DNA from: an uncultured Bacteroidota bacterium | Lineage (GTDB): Bacteria > Bacteroidota > Bacteroidia > Bacteroidales > UBA12077 | Assembly: GCA_913055635.1 (NCBI GenBank) | Contig: CAJXLK010000021.1 | Coordinates: 6,686-70,685, forward strand | Direction of reading: 5' to 3' | DNA length: 64,000 nucleotides | Shown: piece by piece, positions 2,430-15,143 of the stretch | Layout: each line of letters starts with the position of its first letter | How positions within the stretch are numbered: position 1 is the stretch's first letter | Notes under the pieces: generated by a model | Told to the model about the DNA's origin: nothing | What the model saw: only the letters and a program-made list of their open reading frames with translations | The model's database searches: none | Made by a program: the position numbers and the translations under genes

Positions 2430-2800
2430 ATATGGGTGACCATAAATATATGGAGAATCCCTTATATATGGGTGTCTTTGATTAAGTGGATGTCCCCGAT
2501 TATATAAATGTTCACGATTATATAGGTGCCTCCTTTCTATATAGTTACCCCCTTATATGGGTGTCTCTTATGAGATGGGTGTTCCCGATTATATTGAAAT
2601 TATCCATTCATTATCCCCCATCTCTATTTCCATTCCAGCGGGCCTAATAAAAAACTGAAGAAATGGCCAATCCGATAAATGGTCCAGTCAGAGGAAAAGG
2701 CCCAATCAATCCAATTAAAAATGGACCAATCCGATAAAAAATCCATTCCAGTATATAAATAATGGTCTAAATAGAAAAAAATGGCCCAAACAGATAGGGT
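2430..2800. repeat. Non-coding region packed with short repeated words
   Basis: ATGGGTGT-type words occur near 2431, 2466, 2556 and 2572. CGATTATAT occurs near 2497, 2515 and 2587. A 50-nt imperfect direct repeat pairs 2459-2510 with 2552-2600. AATGGNCCAA(TCCGATAAA) words occur near 2661, 2678, 2719, 2760 and 2779. Confidence 0.6.
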
Positions 2801-2898
2801 CAACCGGAAGAAAAGGGTCATAGGAGTGAAGATCATTCAAAAGATTCCAAGGCCTTGAGAGGAATCAACCAATTATTAAATGGACAAAAACAACAGCC

Positions 2899-3936
2899 AT
2901 GAAAAATTCAGCCAACAACAACCGGCCCCGCAGGAACTTCAAACATTGGTTCCTGGCGTTTCCAATTTTCTTTTTGACCCTGCTCTCCCTGAACAGCTAT
3001 GGTCAGGATATAACGCAGAAAATATCCAACACCAAATCCCTTTTCGAACAGATGAATGTCGATGAGGTCGACACCAGCTATACCCACCAATGGCTTGAAG
3101 ATTCAAGCCGCTGGGAGCTCTACAACCGGGAGATCAGCCTTTATAAAGCCAAGAACAAACTGATCGGAACCCTCAACGAGCGTTGGAACGATCAAGAAAG
3201 GAACTGGGAAAATTATGACCGTTCGGTCCGCAGCTATGACGACAAGGGTAAGATGATAGAGACCCTGCATCAGCAGTGGGACCCGAAACAAAACGAATGG
3301 CGAAACCTGCAATTGAAAACCTACACCTATGACGGGATGGGCAATAAGAGTGAGGTTCTCTACCATGAATGGCGTCAGGCCGTAGGTCAATGGTTCAGCA
3401 CCATCCGCTACCTGATTGACTACAACATCAACGGGGAAGAAAGCGAGGTGCTGATCAAGGTTTATTCGCCCTCGACCGACACCTGGACCAATGACACACG
3501 TTACTCTTTCGAGTATGATGATGGATTTGGCCCTCCGGACAAAGCCATCGTAGAATCGTGGAATGATTTTGACGAAAGCTGGGAAAATCGGGGTATCTAC
3601 TCCATGCAGTATAACTTCCGGGGCAACAAAGTCAAAGAGAGCCGTTCAACCTGGAATGAGAGCATGAAAAAGTGGATCAACGGCATCCGTTACCTGATGG
3701 ACTACAATAAAGACCTGCTGGTCAACGAGATTGAACAAAGGTGGGACTTCCGCACCAATGAATGGAACAATGCCATCCGCAATCAGTTCACCTACGACGA
3801 CAAAGGTGATGTTAAGGAGATGGTCGAAGAAAGATGGAGTCAGGACAGTTCCAAGTGGATCACCAAGAACATCTTTCTCTATTCCAACATCAAAGAGCTG
3901 GAGGATCAGTACAAAAAACCCGAAAAAAAACAGTAA
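2899..3936 (+). CDS. Secreted repeat protein (about seven ~46-aa Trp/Tyr-Asp-Gly repeats), function unknown
   Basis: Signal-peptide-like N-terminus (FLAFPIFFLTLLSLNSYGQ). Recurring pattern W-x3-5-W...Y-x-YD-x-x-G (WNDQERNWENYDRSVRSYDDKGK, WDPKQNEWRNLQLKTYTYDGMGN, WDFRTNEWNNAIRNQFTYDDKGD). Confidence 0.7.
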   Translation: MKNSANNNRPRRNFKHWFLAFPIFFLTLLSLNSYGQDITQKISNTKSLFEQMNVDEVDTSYTHQWLEDSSRWELYNREISLYKAKNKLIGTLNERWNDQERNWENYDRSVRSYDDKGKMIETLHQQWDPKQNEWRNLQLKTYTYDGMGNKSEVLYHEWRQAVGQWFSTIRYLIDYNINGEESEVLIKVYSPSTDTWTNDTRYSFEYDDGFGPPDKAIVESWNDFDESWENRGIYSMQYNFRGNKVKESRSTWNESMKKWINGIRYLMDYNKDLLVNEIEQRWDFRTNEWNNAIRNQFTYDDKGDVKEMVEERWSQDSSKWITKNIFLYSNIKELEDQYKKPEKKQ

Positions 3937-3946
3937 TTTTGTAATA

Positions 3947-3977
3947 GGGAACCCCCGGTTTCCGCCGGGGTTTTCCC
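3947..3977 (+). terminator. GC-rich hairpin between the repeat-protein gene and the ECF sigma gene
   Basis: gggaacccccgg-tttccg-ccggggttttccc. The inner stem is ccccgg/ccgggg and the outer stem gggaa/ttccc, followed by a T-rich stretch. Confidence 0.5.
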
Positions 3978-4006
3978 TGTTTGGATCCGACAAGCTTGAG
4001 AGGACA

Positions 4007-4558
4007 ATGAAATCAGACGAGAAAAAAATCATCCGGGAAATCAAAAAAGGCGACATTCAGAGCTTTGAGCGGCTTTTTAAGGGGCATTATGAAGCCCTCA
4101 CCTTCTATGCCAACCGCTATTTGAAAGATCTGGACCTTTCCGAGGAAGCTGTCCAGGATGTTTTTTACTCGATCTGGGTCAAACGGGGCGAACTCAACAT
4201 CAGGGAATCCATCAAATCATACCTTTATACCGCCACGCGCAACAAATGCCTTAAGATGCTCAGAGCCGACCAAACGGCCGACAAGTATTCACAATACATT
4301 CAAAAGAGTGACCCTCAAAAGGTTTTTACACCGGTCGATGAACTCAATGCCAAAGAACTCAACAGCCTGATTGAGCGCACCCTTATACAATTGCCCCGGC
4401 GAACCCGGGAGATATTCAGGCTGAACCGGTACCAGGGGATGAAATACACTGAAATAGCTGAAAAAATGTCCATTTCGGTGAAAACCGTTGAAGCCAATAT
4501 GGGCAAAGCTTTGAAAATATTCCGCAAGAATCTGGAGGAATACCTTAAAGTGATTTAA
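4007..4558 (+). CDS. ECF-type RNA polymerase sigma-70 family factor
   Basis: Start chosen at the ATG at 4007 (MKSDEKKIIREIKKGD) because the longer ORF from 3731 overlaps the upstream gene. Region 2-like FERLFKGHYEALTFYANRYL..VQDVFYSIW; region 4-like LPRRTREIFRLNRYQGMKYTEIAEKMSISVKTVEANMGKALK. Confidence 0.85.
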   Translation: MKSDEKKIIREIKKGDIQSFERLFKGHYEALTFYANRYLKDLDLSEEAVQDVFYSIWVKRGELNIRESIKSYLYTATRNKCLKMLRADQTADKYSQYIQKSDPQKVFTPVDELNAKELNSLIERTLIQLPRRTREIFRLNRYQGMKYTEIAEKMSISVKTVEANMGKALKIFRKNLEEYLKVI

Positions 4559-9823: not shown

Positions 9824-10768
9824 AGCGACGAGTTTGCGCGGGATGTCAAAAAAGGATTATCCTCGGAGCCCAAATACCTTGAATCCAAGTATTTTTATGA
9901 TACCGAGGGAGATAAACTATTCCAGGAAATCATGGGCCTGAGTGAATACTACCTGACCGACTGTGAATTTGAGATATTGCATCAAAACCGGGACAAGCTG
10001 TTAAAAGCTTTCAGCGATGCGGGAAATCCCTTTTCCCTGGTAGAATTGGGCGCGGGTGACGGGTTGAAAACCAAATTATTGCTGCGTCATTTTCATGGCC
10101 ACTCAGCAGATTTCACCTATTTGCCCATTGATATATCGCCCAATGTATTGAATGTCTTAAGTTATGAACTCTCCCGGGATCTGCCCGGTGTTCAGGTGCA
10201 GCCCTATCCGGGCGACTATTTTGATGGCCTCGATGAGCTGAACCGAAAGGATGGCGGGCGTAAGGTGATATTGTTTCTGGGCTCCAGCATCGGCAATTTT
10301 CAACCTGACGACAGCCTGAACTTCCTCAAAGGCCTTTATCAGCGGATGAACCGGGGCGACCAGCTGATGATCGGCTTCGATTTGAAGAAAGACCCCCACA
10401 TCATCCTCAGGGCTTACAATGATGATTCGGGCATCACGGCCCGCTTCAACCTGAATCTTTTAAACCGGATCAACAAAGAACTCGATGCAGACTTTAACCT
10501 GGATAACTTTTACCACTATCCCATTTACAATCCCCTGAATGGAGAAACCCGAAGTTTTCTGATCAGCAAGCTGGCCCAAACCGTGCGGATTGGTTATCTT
10601 GATCAAACCTTCCACTTCCACATGGGCGAACCCGTCTCGATGGAAATATCCCAGAAATTCGACCTGACAATGGTTGATGAGCTGGCCGGCCGCTCAGGCT
10701 TTGCCGTGGAGGCCAATTTCTTCGACAGCCGCCGTTTTTTCCTCGATTCCTTGTGGAAGAAACCCTAA
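9821..10768 (+). CDS. egtD: L-histidine N-alpha-methyltransferase family protein (EgtD-like, Methyltransf_33)
   Basis: Start placed at the ATG at 9821 (MSDEFARDVKKGL). Collinear with my recollection of EgtD: PKYLESKYFYDTEGDKLFQEI..EYY, LVELGAGDGLKT, ILFLGSSIGNF, RAYNDDSGITARFNLNLLNRINKEL. No egtB-like gene is adjacent. Confidence 0.75.
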   Translation: MSDEFARDVKKGLSSEPKYLESKYFYDTEGDKLFQEIMGLSEYYLTDCEFEILHQNRDKLLKAFSDAGNPFSLVELGAGDGLKTKLLLRHFHGHSADFTYLPIDISPNVLNVLSYELSRDLPGVQVQPYPGDYFDGLDELNRKDGGRKVILFLGSSIGNFQPDDSLNFLKGLYQRMNRGDQLMIGFDLKKDPHIILRAYNDDSGITARFNLNLLNRINKELDADFNLDNFYHYPIYNPLNGETRSFLISKLAQTVRIGYLDQTFHFHMGEPVSMEISQKFDLTMVDELAGRSGFAVEANFFDSRRFFLDSLWKKP

Positions 10769-10770
10769 GG

Positions 10771-10956
10771 CTACTTCCGCGAACGGATGATCAGATATAC
10801 CACCCGGATCAGACCTGCCCCAAAGATGGCCATGGCCAGGTAATAAAAATAACGCGCAGCTCCAGGATCTATTTGTAATGCATCATGCGCAATATAAGCA
10901 ATTAGCGACAAGAGCGCCAGAATATAAAGGCCGCTGAAGATTCTTTTGGTTTTCAT
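10771..10956 (-). CDS. Small two-TM membrane protein, unknown function
   Basis: MKTKRIFSGLYILALLSLIAYIAHD...YYLAMAIFGAGLIRVVYLIIRSRK. Only the ORF and hydrophobicity support it. Confidence 0.4.
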   Translation of the reverse strand: MKTKRIFSGLYILALLSLIAYIAHDALQIDPGAARYFYYLAMAIFGAGLIRVVYLIIRSRK

Positions 10957-11091
10957 GGGGTGATGTTTTATACCGCAAAAGTGCAAAAAATCCGGTCAAT
11001 AACACCAACCGTCAAAAAACATTGTGTTGGGCTGAACCATTAAGCCATTATGTCGTTCATCCTAAATGATATATCACGGGCTGTTGTAAAC

Positions 11092-11168
11092 AGCAAATAT
11101 CCGGTTTGCTGTCAAAGGTTAAAACGTGAATAGGCCAGGCGTATTTTGGGGGAATTGTATGCCAGGTC
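11092..11168. repeat. Left copy of a ~77-bp direct repeat
   Basis: agcaaatatccggtttgctgtcaaaggttaaaacg matches 12302-12336 with 1 mismatch in 35. The remaining ~40 nt are roughly 70 percent similar and both copies end in ccaggtc. Confidence 0.8.
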
Positions 11169-11319
11169 TTAATGATAAAAACAAATACTCATATTGCGGA
11201 ATTGCATCATAAAGTCTGTTTCCATGGAATTTCATTCTCTTGCAGTAGGGACATCCGGCCCGTTCGACCTAAAAAAGCAATTGATGTTGCATGTATCAAA
11301 CACCCTTTACCAGAAAACG

Positions 11320-11454
11320 TTAAGTCGAAGCCAAAGGGGTGTAGCAAAAATGACTAGCTTTTCCCGTTCTTCGGGCACCAATCAATACTCCAACTTTGCT
11401 CGGTTTAAGTTTTTTTATGACATTCGTTTGAACCGCTCTTTCAATAAATTTCAT
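11320..11454 (-). pseudogene. Possible N-terminal remnant of an AAA ATPase (AAA_14/DUF4143-type)
   Basis: 44-codon ORF, below the track cutoff: MKFIERAVQTNVIKKLKPSKVGVLIGARRTGKAS, then a stop. The P-loop-like GARRTGKAS resembles the start of that ATPase family. No continuation was found in any frame. Confidence 0.3.
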
Positions 11455-11653
11455 GCAAAATTTTATTTTTCATTGACAAATTCAATATAAATTTTGTCAA
11501 TAACCTGAAAAATTTACATATCATCCACAGAAACGAGGTTTATCATTTCTCTCAGCAAAAAAATGTTACTGGCCATTGGTTCTGATATAGCACCTATATC
11601 AGGAATTAAAAAAATTACCGGCTCAATATAAAACGTTAAGGAAAGATTACCCG

Positions 11654-12277
11654 TTAAAATTCCTTCAACTTGAATCCTTCCGGGTTCATCACGGCAATGT
11701 TTTCCCCGGACTGGGTGAGCACCAGCAGTCCGTGTTTAGTAGCAAGTTCGTAGCTGTCGGTAGGTACGCTCATGCCTGCAACGGCGCCAATGACTTGTTT
11801 ATTTTCATATTCAGGAAATAAAGGCTTAAAATTAGGGAGTTTGCGGTTTGCAAAATCTGTAACATCATCCGGGTGGAGTTTGTATTTCACTTCAACAATG
11901 ATCATCGTATCTCCATTGTAAAGAACAATATCATATTCGCCCTGAAGGTTTTTATATCTTTTTTCAAATTTACCAACCTGGTCGTAAGGAATACCAAAAA
12001 GTGATGTTTTCGTCTCCAATCCCCTTCGAAAAAATTCTTCGGCCACATCTCCGTTGTTGTCTGAGATACCGCCATAAAGTTTAGCCAGCCTATCAATCTT
12101 GCGGTCTGTGGCCTTCATTTGTTTATCGGTTTCCCGGAATTTCTCGGTTAACAGCTTATCCGTTTCCTTGAATTTTTTGTCGGTCTCCTGGAACATCTTC
12201 CAGACCTGTTGAAAGGAAACCGGCTCTCCATAGTCAGAAAGGGGCTCATTGGCATTATTTTCATCCTTTTTGCTCAT
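11654..12277 (-). CDS. PD-(D/E)XK nuclease-fold protein with an N-terminal coiled coil (DUF3782-like)
   Basis: Start placed at MSKKDENN (12277). Repeated KFKETDK/KFRETDK/MKATDRK coiled-coil segment, then YDIVLYNGDTMIIVEVKYKL, which fits a D...E-x-K nuclease core. Confidence 0.55.
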   Translation of the reverse strand: MSKKDENNANEPLSDYGEPVSFQQVWKMFQETDKKFKETDKLLTEKFRETDKQMKATDRKIDRLAKLYGGISDNNGDVAEEFFRRGLETKTSLFGIPYDQVGKFEKRYKNLQGEYDIVLYNGDTMIIVEVKYKLHPDDVTDFANRKLPNFKPLFPEYENKQVIGAVAGMSVPTDSYELATKHGLLVLTQSGENIAVMNPEGFKLKEF

Positions 12278-12301
12278 ATCTTTTGGTATTTTTATAAAGA
12301 T

Positions 12302-12376
12302 AGCAAATATTCGGTTTGCTGTCAAAGGTTAAAACGCAAAGGGGCTGGGAGATATTTTGGAGGAATTTACCAGGTC
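12302..12376. repeat. Right copy of the ~77-bp direct repeat, abutting the truncated RT
   Basis: See 11092-11168. This copy lies immediately upstream of the nuclease-like gene start, and the last sense codon of the RT-stub ORF lies just beyond its outer edge. Confidence 0.8.
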
Positions 12377-12551
12377 AATTTTTCAAAGGGCTGATTGAAT
12401 CTTGTTTGCTATTTACAGCCTCATAATCTATCTCAAATTTTAGCGCGTTTGTAGTATTTCGTTTATTTGATCTGCATTCCATATACGCTTCAAATAAATC
12501 AGTAAAAGATATGCCTGATATTTTTGCGTCTTCCCATAATTTTCGTTGCAT
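12375..12551 (-). pseudogene. DGR reverse transcriptase, N-terminal stub only (58 codons)
   Basis: My own minus-strand translation from the ATG at 12551: MQRKLWEDAKISGISFTDLFEAYMECRSNKRNTTNALKFEIDYEAVNSKQDSISPLKN, then a stop. The segment LFEAYMECRSNKRNTTNALKFEIDYEA parallels the Bordetella Brt N-terminus as I recall it (LLDAYRKTSHGKRRTWGYLEFKEYDLAN). Similarity is lost after about codon 45, and no finger/palm motifs occur anywhere downstream. Confidence 0.55.
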
Positions 12552-12566
12552 ACATTACTTTGTTTT

Positions 12567-12597
12567 AAAAAGGCAGAGAGAAATTCCCTCTGCCTTT
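12567..12597 (-). other. Hairpin between the TR 3' end and the RT start codon
   Basis: aaaaggcagagag-aaattc-cctctgcctttt: a stem of about 11 bp with one mismatch. Confidence 0.6.
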
Positions 12598-12609
12598 TGC
12601 TGATTTGGC

Positions 12610-12746
12610 AATCTCTGCGGACGCACCTGACCCGTTTGTTGTTGTTCTTATTGTAGTTGTTCTGGTTACCATTGTTGAAGTTCTGGTTCCACGCGTTGTT
12701 AGCGTCGTTCTCAGTACTACTCCAATAGTTGTTTGAACTAAAACCG
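12610..12746 (-). repeat. DGR template repeat (TR), 137 bp
   Basis: Read in the VR frame, TR translates as GFSSNNYWSSTENDANNAWNQNFNNGNQNNYNKNNNKRVRCVRRD, with 14 AAC and 2 AAT codons. The shared 3' end ggtcaggtgcgtccgcagagatt is identical to VR. Confidence 0.85.
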
Positions 12747-12906
12747 GGTCAAAACAGTAACTTTTTTGTGATTTACAGGCATCTGTAAACCATCTTTGAT
12801 AACAACCACACAAAAAATGGAGGCTGTGTACTGTTGAGATTAACAAATCAGACGCTCGCTCCGGTATGTCGTAACACACCGGATTCTGGCTTTATTTATA
12901 TCATTA

Positions 12907-13254
12907 TTACGTTTTATTAAATTTATTCTCCCATCCTTTCAATTGCTTCCCTATGTTTTCATTCAATGCAATTAATTCTGATTGTTGTTTCCTGCTAAAC
13001 AGTTTTAAATCTCCACAAAGGCGAATTTGAAACTTTATTAATTCAAAATCGTCTAAAACCTGGTTAAAATACTGGTTTTTATCAACCGCTTTGTTTATCC
13101 GGTAAATACCACGCACCAATACTAATGAATCCCTTTTTAAATCCTGCCCGATTGTATATTTATACTCACGCGGAAATTCCTTTGTGTAGCGATACAACAA
13201 TAATATTAATTGGTACACATCTTTATATACTGGTAAATTATAGTATAACGCCAT
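12907..13254 (-). CDS. avd: Four-helix-bundle protein (23S rRNA IVS protein family), Avd-like DGR accessory protein
   Basis: 115 aa: MALYYNLPVYKDVYQLILLLYRYTKEFPREYKYTIGQDLKRDSL...IRLCGDLKLFSRKQQSELIALNENIGKQLKGW. This is typical of that family, and the gene sits between VR and TR. Confidence 0.8.
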   Translation of the reverse strand: MALYYNLPVYKDVYQLILLLYRYTKEFPREYKYTIGQDLKRDSLVLVRGIYRINKAVDKNQYFNQVLDDFELIKFQIRLCGDLKLFSRKQQSELIALNENIGKQLKGWENKFNKT

Positions 13255-13273
13255 AAAGTATAAAATTTTTTAG

Positions 13274-13310
13274 AAAAAAAGAACAGCACTATCGTGCCTG
13301 TTCTTTTTTT
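13274..13310 (-). terminator. Strong hairpin with flanking A/T runs, 17 nt downstream of the target-gene stop
   Basis: aaaaaaagaacagcac-tatc-gtgcctgttcttttttt. It could act as a bidirectional intrinsic terminator, or as the VR-proximal hairpin reported for some DGRs. Confidence 0.6.
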
Positions 13311-13326
13311 CTAAATTGTTAAATTG

Positions 13327-13968
13327 TTAATCTCTGCGGACGCACCTGACCCGCCCGTTGTAGCTCTTACTGGTGCCGTCCTGGTAACCATCGAGGAAGT
13401 ACTGGTCCCACGCGAGGTCAGCGCCGCCCTCAGTACTACTCCAATAGTAGTCCGAACTAAAACCGCCAATTGCATCTTTGTTTTGATACAGCGCATCTAA
13501 CTCATCTTTCGCTGGTAAATACCAATCACTGTATCCATAAGCTGTAAGGGTATCACACACATACGCAGCATGACCATCAGAACCCAATTGGGACACAATA
13601 GCAGATGTATTGGCTTCTCCATCAGTGTCACTATCTGCTCCATTTCCATCGGTTATCTCTGTTCCGTATCCTCCCCATTCAATATCAGTAGCATTATCTT
13701 CAGGATAAACGTATAAAGTGTCGTTGAGATCTATTGTTGAAAGATCTGTAGCAAGCAAACTTCTCTCTTCCCCATAAGCCGTCCCCTCTCTATTGGTTGC
13801 ATAGGCCCGCACATAATAGGTCGTTCCTTCACTTAAGCCGGTCTGTTCGCTGGTAAAACTGCCTGTTCCACTGCCATCGTTCGTGGTATTATCGCTTGTG
13901 GTGGGATTGGAAGAAGTGCTCCAGCATACATCGCGGGCTGTTATTTCAACACCTCCGTTCTCAGTCAC
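13327..13968 (-). CDS. DGR target protein: Ig-like module plus a DUF1566 / Fib_succ_major-type C-type-lectin-fold domain carrying the VR
   Basis: Contains VCWSTSSNPT...TTYYVRAYATNREGTAYGE, then SDWYLPAKDELDALY and a C-terminal YYWSSTEGGADLAWDQYFLDGYQDGTSKSYNGRVRCVRRD. The only start is a GTG at 13968. The frame stays open upstream to 14058 with no ATG and no signal peptide, so the gene is probably 5'-truncated or fused. Confidence 0.7.
   Translation of the reverse strand: MTENGGVEITARDVCWSTSSNPTTSDNTTNDGSGTGSFTSEQTGLSEGTTYYVRAYATNREGTAYGEERSLLATDLSTIDLNDTLYVYPEDNATDIEWGGYGTEITDGNGADSDTDGEANTSAIVSQLGSDGHAAYVCDTLTAYGYSDWYLPAKDELDALYQNKDAIGGFSSDYYWSSTEGGADLAWDQYFLDGYQDGTSKSYNGRVRCVRRD
13329..13465 (-). 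repeat. DGR variable repeat (VR), 137 bp, ending at the target stop codon
   Basis: Ungapped alignment to TR gives 26 mismatches, 25 at positions where the TR coding strand has A. The one exception is T to A within TAC versus ACC. Confidence 0.85.
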
Positions 13969-13997
13969 ATCACCTCCACATACAACGGAAGTAGCCG

Positions 13998-15143
13998 TTA
14001 TATCATATATTTCACCTGTCGCAACAACAGGAGTTCCCGGAGGATTTCCTTCATCACTTCAGCGTCATTGTCTGCATATGGAGCCGATGGCTGGGATTCA
14101 TACTCTTCTATGCCAATAACAACGCCTACCGATTTATTCCGCTTTATATCAGCAGGCGGCACAGTTCGGATGTCCATCACATTGTCCACATTGGCCTTGA
14201 ATTTATATGATTCATACTCAAAACGGGCCACCTCCTTTTGGAGCTTTTTGACATCAGCCTGAACCTGTTTGATATTGGTCTCAGGAGGCTGCGCATCCAG
14301 TGCAAGAGGAAGTTGTTTGTTGTCGAGCGTGCCTATATCTTGTGTTGTATTTAGCGTCAAATAAACAGGTAGTTCACCACGGGTTTCTACCCTTTTATTT
14401 GGACTAATTGTAATCCAAAATTTTTTTACCTCACCAATGCCAATATCGCCATGCTTTCATGATCCTTGTTCCACATAGATGTTTTCAATCTGGGAGTTGA
14501 CCCAATATCTTGTGTTTTTGGCTACATTTTGCCCCACATTTTGTACGACCTGCTTTGCCTTGACCATTTCACCTGCCTGCAACTGTCCATCCCTCTTAAT
14601 GGCTGCCGTTCCTTCCCCCCTGATCGAACAATTTCCATGCCCGATAAAACCAGTTTGGGCCGCTGGTATTCAAGTGAATTCAAGATGAGGTAAGCCGGAT
14701 CCATATCATGGCCATAATGCTCAGTAACACTGATTTTGAGCTTATGCCTTGCCGTAGAAACATCAAAACCCGCCTCTATAGGAATGGTAATATGTTTAGA
14801 TTGGCCCGCCCGGATCATGGCAATCTCTTTTTTATCCTTAATCCGGAATTCAGGATCATTAACAGAATCTTTTACATAAACAGTCAACCCCTGGGCTGGT
14901 CCTTTTCCCTTATTTTTTATGGTTACATGCAATTTGACTGATTCCTCAGCCTCCACTATGCCATTGTTGTTGACATCTTCAAATTTTAAGTCTGCAAATA
15001 GATTTGGCGGCAAACCCCGTTCAAAATCAGGTTGCATGTCAAAATGTTTGGCTTCGCTTTTTCCGTGAATCTTCATGGGCATGAAGGGAATTCACTAATA
15101 AAATGAAACAAAATACCCAACAAACAGTATATATTCGTATCAT
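13998..15143 (-). pseudogene. Disrupted caspase-like (peptidase C14) lipoprotein/secreted protein gene
   Basis: A signal peptide ORF (MIRIYTVCWVFCFILLVNSLHA, 15143 down to 15039) is out of frame with the body that starts at 15082. A second frameshift lies at the C6 run at 14615-14620. An in-frame TGA is at 14457-14459. A caspase-like start (KSVGVVIGIEEYESQPSAPYADNDAEVMKE) breaks off near 14045-14060 and runs into the DGR target frame. Confidence 0.55.

Follow-up and report, generated by a model that had tools for sequence, protein, structure and literature searches.

We analysed a window of 64 kb (64,000 nucleotides, the whole stretch of DNA under study) from contig CAJXLK010000021.1 of an uncultured Bacteroidota bacterium, and observed on its minus strand a diversity-generating retroelement (DGR) whose reverse transcriptase (RT) gene is cut short. 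Read along that strand, the cassette comprises a target gene ending in the variable repeat (VR, 13329..13465), a 47-nt hairpin, an Avd accessory gene (12907..13254), the template repeat (TR, 12610..12746), a hairpin with a 14-bp stem and the start of the RT gene, with its ATG at 12551. A first-pass annotation, made from the sequence without database searches, had given this gene order and all of the coordinates correctly.

To characterize the repeats, we repeated its ungapped alignment of the two 137-nt copies, TR (12746 to 12610) against VR (13465 to 13329). The 26 mismatches in 137 positions were recovered, and 25 of the 26 fall at TR adenines (P = 5.8e-12, hypergeometric/Fisher, with A at 52 of the 137 TR bases). 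The differences are thus almost exclusively confined to TR adenines, as in DGRs generally, and the replacements in VR are A to G at 16 sites, A to T at 6 and A to C at 3. In the VR frame TR holds 14 AAC and 2 AAT codons, and both repeats translate as annotated. VR makes up the last 45 codons of the target and so lies at the 3′ end of its open reading frame, within a PF07603 Lcl_C domain (formerly DUF1566; E = 1.1e-12). This matches the DUF1566-type assignment made at first pass; the C-type-lectin-like fold is assigned from family membership only. TR and VR share an identical 3′ end (CGGGTCAGGTGCGTCCGCAGAGATT) that resembles an initiation-of-mutagenic-homing site. The identity and the resemblance had both been noted, with a length of 23 nt that we correct to 25 nt. 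The 23-mer GGTCAGGTGCGTCCGCAGAGATT has no exact match in the metagenome contigs or viral contigs scanned.

VR is followed, 13 nt downstream, by a near-perfect hairpin (13269..13315, minus strand) of 47 nt with 18-bp arms, which folds as DNA at −20 kcal/mol (z = −9) and resembles both a terminator and a DGR target-recognition hairpin. A role for such hairpins in DGR target recognition is known (PMC3240598). The hairpin in the spacer between TR and RT (12568..12598, minus strand) is retained intact, with a 14-bp stem (−12.1 kcal/mol, z = −3.7), and the spacer is conserved in two related contigs, L002 and L099. An Rfam scan of 10500-15500 returned sub-threshold hairpin matches only. The Avd gene is likewise intact. 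It encodes 115 amino acids and matches PF22296 bAvd over profile positions 7-106 of 107 (E = 1.1e-17), a full-length Avd that bears out the Avd-like label given before; its best NCBIfam match, NF033474 DivGenRetAVD (E = 2.2e-15, 56.9 bits), is under that model's 80-bit cutoff. The nearest Avd relatives in the genome contigs scanned, a set of species representatives without the source genome, are in a Lewinellaceae metagenome-assembled genome (MAG; 79% identity), itself decayed, and in a Saprospiraceae MAG (60%). The host probably belongs to Saprospirales, an approximate placement. Judged by sequence criteria, the locus is a genuine DGR in every respect save the RT: in place of an adjacent intact DGR-clade RT it has RT codons 1-45 only.

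The RT start lies in an open reading frame of 58 codons (12375-12551, minus strand), of which codons 1-45 (12417..12551) are RT and the remainder (12375..12416), VNSKQDSISPLKN plus a stop, is read-through unrelated to it. Intact DGR-type RTs of this clade align collinearly at their N-termini with the 45 codons, and 15 columns of this alignment are invariant, including the NKRNT motif. The 58-codon stub described at first pass is therefore real, as is the unrelated sequence that follows its RT portion. A Pfam search with the stub alone gave no match, as expected for a region N-terminal to RVT_1. A word-indexed search retrieved an 88-aa protein, 98% identical over its first 45 residues, whose contig (L002, JGI sample 3300038621) is 96% identical to window positions 12891-12418 and continues into an RVT_1 RT. 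We reconstructed a reference RT of 410 aa from L002 and used it as a tblastn query on the window. It matched the stub at 98% identity (E = 1e-23) and, at E values up to 100, no other RT-like sequence or palm motif in the 64 kb, in agreement with the earlier statement on the absence of palm motifs. Homologues of the reconstructed RT number more than 7,000 at E ≤ 1e-60, but above 84% identity the searched collections contain no RT sequence apart from the disrupted copy in L002 and a partial one in L099.

Comparison with related contigs located the breakpoint. L099 (ENA ERZ511486) and the window agree at all 329 nt of 12746-12418, a stretch that covers TR, the spacer and the RT start. Past 12418 it reads GAACCTCATGCG, encoding ANLMRLLNEINTGQYYPGRSIAFVIDKPVKREIFAADFRDRVVH as in intact RTs, and its RT sequence runs at least 42 codons beyond the breakpoint, to the RDRVVH motif at the contig end; the window reads TGTAAATAGC instead. 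Because L099 continues as RT where the window diverges, we place the breakpoint at 12418|12417, and DNA identity to both L099 and L002 stops at 12418. A third contig, L098 (ENA ERZ27241914, 54.7 kb), shares this truncated junction: its identity to the window is 100% over 12746-12153 (594 nt), and 10,335 nt of upstream flank are identical as well. Present in an independent assembly, the junction is therefore reproducible and not a one-off misassembly. Since L099 keeps the RT past the breakpoint, the full-length state is ancestral and the RT loss recent. As read from these contigs, an RT-retaining haplotype near-identical to the window exists in nature.

The lone mismatch outside the TR adenines pairs T at 12655 in TR with A at 13374 in VR. 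The first-pass annotation had recorded this exception as a T to A change; it is present, and can be refined to a substitution in the TR of the window. In L002, the 96%-identical relative, TR has A at this position, within a run of AAC codons, and the T is accordingly derived (A to T). An RT error at a non-adenine was considered as the cause of the mismatch and rejected for the same reason. In a further contig, L001, VR has G at the matching site. DGR copying is faithful at non-adenines. With A in one VR, G in the other and T in TR, the present TR was the template for neither. A VR serviced in trans would agree with the current TR at all non-adenine positions, and at 12655/13374 it does not. 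L099 already has T at 12655 together with RT sequence past the breakpoint, and the TR substitution therefore predates the RT loss. Hence it appears that no homing has been fixed since the substitution, and the likely order of events is last homing, then TR substitution, then RT loss.

L001 and L098 derive from one sample. Over ~13279-12688, which takes in Avd and the 5′ part of TR, L001 matches the window at every aligned base. Its VR nevertheless departs from that of the window at adenine-templated positions, and it exceeds it in length by 15 nt. Such a change in VR beside an unchanged flank indicates that the element was active not long ago. Two small differences lie beside this VR. In L001 (~95-150, against window 13262-13330) the hairpin downstream of VR is reverse-complemented, with the loop changed from GATA to TATC and the bulged G on the other arm, and the window has a tandem 8-nt duplication (TTAACAAT), an 8-nt indel relative to L001, just after the stop codon. 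We also observed that three public assemblies (L098 10336-10640; L099 ~750-1054; proteins P0005 and P0006) join the target directly to TR, the spacer and the RT start, with VR and Avd left out. In the 163 nt that precede the repeat (window 13471-13633) these assemblies have the same 12 substitutions, of which 3 are non-synonymous, including one at the conserved W of SDWYLP; the next 10.3 kb upstream is identical to the window. The direct join could be an assembly shortcut across heterogeneous VRs or a real VR/TR recombinant.

The target gene is itself a remnant (13327..14055, minus strand), with one Fn3-like module and the Lcl_C/DUF1566 domain that ends in VR. A TGA at ~14058 precedes its open frame, no start codon is available before the GTG at 13968, which is within the Fn3-like module, and the gene has no signal peptide. 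In P0167, a full-length orthologue (291 aa, 58% identity), the lipoprotein signal MKKTNFTIYGFIILGMMIAFSIGC stands at the N-terminus, and other relatives of the same architecture have a signal or lipoprotein peptide at their start. Because the relatives start in this way and the window frame does not, the 5′ end of the target has been lost. The first-pass annotation had rightly seen that this gene carries VR and had overlooked the missing 5′ end. As the gene has ceased to encode a secreted lipoprotein, little function is left to diversify. Upstream lies a caspase-like pseudogene (14030..15143, minus strand) with a signal peptide, CARDB/Ig-like domains and the start of a caspase domain, weakly matched in Pfam by CARDB, HYDIN_VesB and Peptidase_C14. 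Three-frame translation revealed two frameshifts and an in-frame TGA, and the pseudogene is cut off where the target remnant begins. Its gene calls recur in L098.

On the other side of the breakpoint, the place of the RT body is taken by an intact gene for a 207-aa protein (11654..12277, minus strand) with an N-terminal coiled coil and a predicted PD-(D/E)XK nuclease fold, a prediction that fits its conserved D116, E129 and K131. The family comprises 2,845 representative clusters with no function assigned, and its members give weak matches to Card1_endonuc, DUF3782, Hjc, PDDEXK_1 and UPF0102. A direct repeat of ~68-78 nt forms the leader/promoter region of this gene (12302..12376, minus strand); a second copy with 76-82% identity and no gene after it lies 1.2 kb further on (11092..11168, minus strand). 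The same 207-aa gene is carried by L100, a 992-bp Logan contig (1-992) that has this leader region at both ends; its identical 30-nt ends imply a 962-bp unit, tandem or circular. Exact look-ups of the stub (P0001), of P0005 and of the 207-aa protein returned no contig. Between the gene and the second repeat copy, an AAA_14/DUF4143 ATPase gene persists as no more than its promoter and 33 initial codons (11356..11515, minus strand). This truncated piece is 88% identical over 160 nt to 5110-5269 of L111, where an intact RT (84% identical) is followed, 3.4 kb downstream, by the intact ATPase gene of 383 aa. The remnant is syntenic with L111; ancestral synteny has therefore been kept while the bodies of the RT and ATPase genes are gone. 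We also considered an RT split by an insertion, with the remainder further along, and rejected it: the window holds no RT remainder, and the syntenic ATPase fragment is within 1 kb. GC content is 0.37-0.39 over 11000-13500, and 0.35-0.39 when 15000-16500 is included, against a window mean of 0.47. This low-GC stretch holds the gene fragments (caspase-like pseudogene, target remnant, RT stub and ATPase stub) and may be a decaying acquired island.

Disrupted RTs were frequent among the related loci fetched (L002, L016, L080-L082 and L101-L110), and these independent inactivations indicate that such decay is common. The L002 RT has an inserted GIY-YIG element of ~290 bp and a frameshift; the RTs of L101-L110 have the same kind of insertion and a truncation after residue ~131. 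In L016 (10001-10945, the Lewinellaceae MAG with the closest Avd at 79%), Avd runs directly into RT residues 218-410, and TR and the N-terminal half of the RT are deleted, which makes it another independently decayed DGR. In L080 the RT is interrupted after LVLYLIEKTIF by a ~400-nt insert (~3861-4264) that resembles a miniature inverted-repeat transposable element, in that its ends are inverted repeats and a perfect, GC-rich hairpin lies inside it; by similarity, with matching RT 1-188 hits, L081 and L082 have the same insert.

The GIY-YIG element (L002 708-997; L102 ~2706-3011, also in L101 and L103-L110; L024 5478-5760) is ~290 bp long, with terminal inverted repeats of 14-16 bp (CACCCCGTtGGATTA) and a gene for an 89-aa protein. 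Two DGR RT genes whose N-termini are only 47% identical carry it at one shared codon junction, FAAD(F/L)|RDRVVH; the uninterrupted gene has FAADFRDRVVHH-coding sequence at this site. The GIY-YIG proteins of both RT insertions fall in one 90%-identity cluster, and both interrupted RTs have decayed further. A copy with 64% identity lies between Avd and TR in L024; the window has none. The pattern resembles homing to a specific site, the RT motif that is most conserved, and suggests a selfish element that targets DGR RTs. A literature search found no link between GIY-YIG elements and DGRs, and for the GIY-YIG and 207-aa proteins alike, sequence searches of PHROGs, PADLOC and PDB gave nothing usable.

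Taken together, these data suggest that the locus is a recently decayed relic of an ordinary DGR with a frozen VR, to which we assign a probability of about 0.85. The ancestor would have been a chromosomal Bacteroidota-type DGR with bAvd, TR, RT and a lipoprotein Lcl_C/DUF1566 target bearing a C-type-lectin-like VR. With intact RT and Avd, TR RNA would have been copied into cDNA with its adenines misread, and the product would have replaced VR; such mutagenic homing would have left the 25 adenine-site differences. An illegitimate recombination, either deletion or replacement, may then have removed RT codons 46 to ~410 and joined codon 45 to the leader of the predicted PD-(D/E)XK nuclease gene. 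In a separate event the 5′ end of the target, with its lipoprotein signal, would have been lost and the remainder fused to the decayed caspase-like gene. The present VR would be a snapshot of the last homing event, and Avd, TR, the spacer hairpin and the VR hairpin would still be intact because the loss is recent. We infer the mechanism of past diversification from what is known of DGRs, and we also infer the order of events and the present inactivity. The first-pass annotation had offered a frozen, decayed cassette as one of two readings, and it is favoured by the RT breakpoint relative to L099, the target without its signal end, the flanking pseudogenes and fragments, and a VR without the T of TR. 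Several points weigh against it. The undamaged Avd, TR (with all 14 AAC codons) and both hairpins also fit a cassette in use. The argument from site 12655 depends on a single position. If L001 is linked to a truncated RT, its VR changed after the truncation. The genome was covered through the 64-kb window; another ~10.5 kb of the contig, and every other contig, lie outside it.

The second reading of the first-pass annotation was a functional TR/Avd/VR set on which a DGR RT from another part of the genome acts in trans. Multi-target DGRs do operate in this way, as does a plasmid-supplied RT in the Bordetella phage system. The intact Avd, TR, spacer hairpin and VR hairpin would suit such a cassette, as would the different VR of L001 on a window-identical background in the same sample as the truncated junction of L098. 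However, a target without start region or signal peptide leaves little to select for, and a VR that keeps A where TR has T has not been rewritten by the present TR. The RTs above 84% identity in the collections are only the disrupted and partial copies, with no RT in the window to add to them, and the ERZ511486 haplotype with RT past the breakpoint means that a mixed population would explain the L001 VR. Nothing in the evidence supports servicing in trans, and we consider it very unlikely. A related scenario, in which the VR was rewritten after the truncation by an RT from a second DGR or a co-infecting element, is very unlikely indeed. It would explain the different VR in the same-sample contig on an otherwise identical Avd/TR background and, if true, would represent a natural RT-less TR/Avd/VR module kept for use in trans.

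The truncation might instead be a chimeric assembly join, with an ordinary intact DGR in the real genome. The TR/VR repeat does trouble public assemblies, in that L098, L099 and the P0005 contig jump from target to TR, and L099 has a foreign 5′ end of 65% GC. Yet L098 repeats the junction at 100% identity over its 594 nt and also has the neighbouring truncations and frameshifts, the 140 nt beyond the junction have no long repeat elsewhere in the window to mislead an assembler (blastn), and the rest of the RT is absent from the window, which makes an artefact extremely unlikely. A last possibility concerns how the RT was lost and would refine the decayed-relic reading, not replace it: the RT may have been displaced by a mobile or duplicative cassette with the 207-aa gene, or a nuclease directed at DGR RT genes, like that of the GIY-YIG element in the relatives, may have cut it, with the RT lost when the break was misrepaired. 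Displacement would be consistent with the direct repeats of 68-78 nt that flank the 207-aa gene, with the 962-bp tandem or circular unit in L100 and with the low GC of the region, but the cassette has no transposase or integrase and the family no known mobility. For faulty repair, the GIY-YIG elements of L002 and L101-L110 lie 37 codons downstream of the breakpoint position in RTs that are further damaged; the window, however, has no GIY-YIG gene, and its breakpoint is off the insertion site. We regard either route as rather unlikely.

As a relic, the locus reveals no new mechanism and is a degenerate member of a well-known DGR type. Because DGR finders anchor on the RT, RT-less remnants are systematically missed, and published DGR surveys, which also anchor on the RT, say little on them. 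Here a remnant can be seen shortly after RT loss, with TR, Avd and hairpins intact, an exact breakpoint and a near-identical haplotype that retains RT sequence past that point. This natural pair of RT-retaining and truncated haplotypes offers a useful worked example for estimates of DGR death rates and for the annotation of frozen VRs. The GIY-YIG element in the RT genes of relatives, which lies outside the window, is the more interesting lead.

Compared with the DGR prototype from Bordetella phage BPP-1 (mtd-avd-TR-brt), the window shares the order target-Avd-TR-RT, the VR at the 3′ end of the target, adenine-confined differences, identical repeat 3′ ends, a hairpin just downstream of VR and an AAC-rich TR. 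It differs in an RT cut to 45 codons, in a 5′-truncated target that is of the Lcl_C/DUF1566 type and not a phage tail fibre, and in its chromosomal setting with no phage genes nearby. Other counterparts are the chromosomal Bacteroidota-type DGRs (such as L004, L020, L024, L046, L070 and L111), which have lipoprotein Lcl_C/DUF1566 or Fib_succ_major targets. They share with the window the RT clade (53-84% identity to the reconstructed RT), the Avd family, the layout and the target domain family with Fn3-like modules, but they keep an RT of 400-410 aa and the target signal peptide, both of which the window has lost. In our literature search no published counterpart of this truncated-RT cassette came to light; the nearest description concerns Treponema denticola isolates (Nimkulrat et al. 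2016, PMC4891356). Strains of that species differ in the presence of the DGR core; some isolates have target genes or VRs but lack an RT, and truncated targets occur among them. In contrast to those remnants, which have lost both TR and RT, the window keeps its TR, its Avd, a visible RT start and the exact breakpoint.

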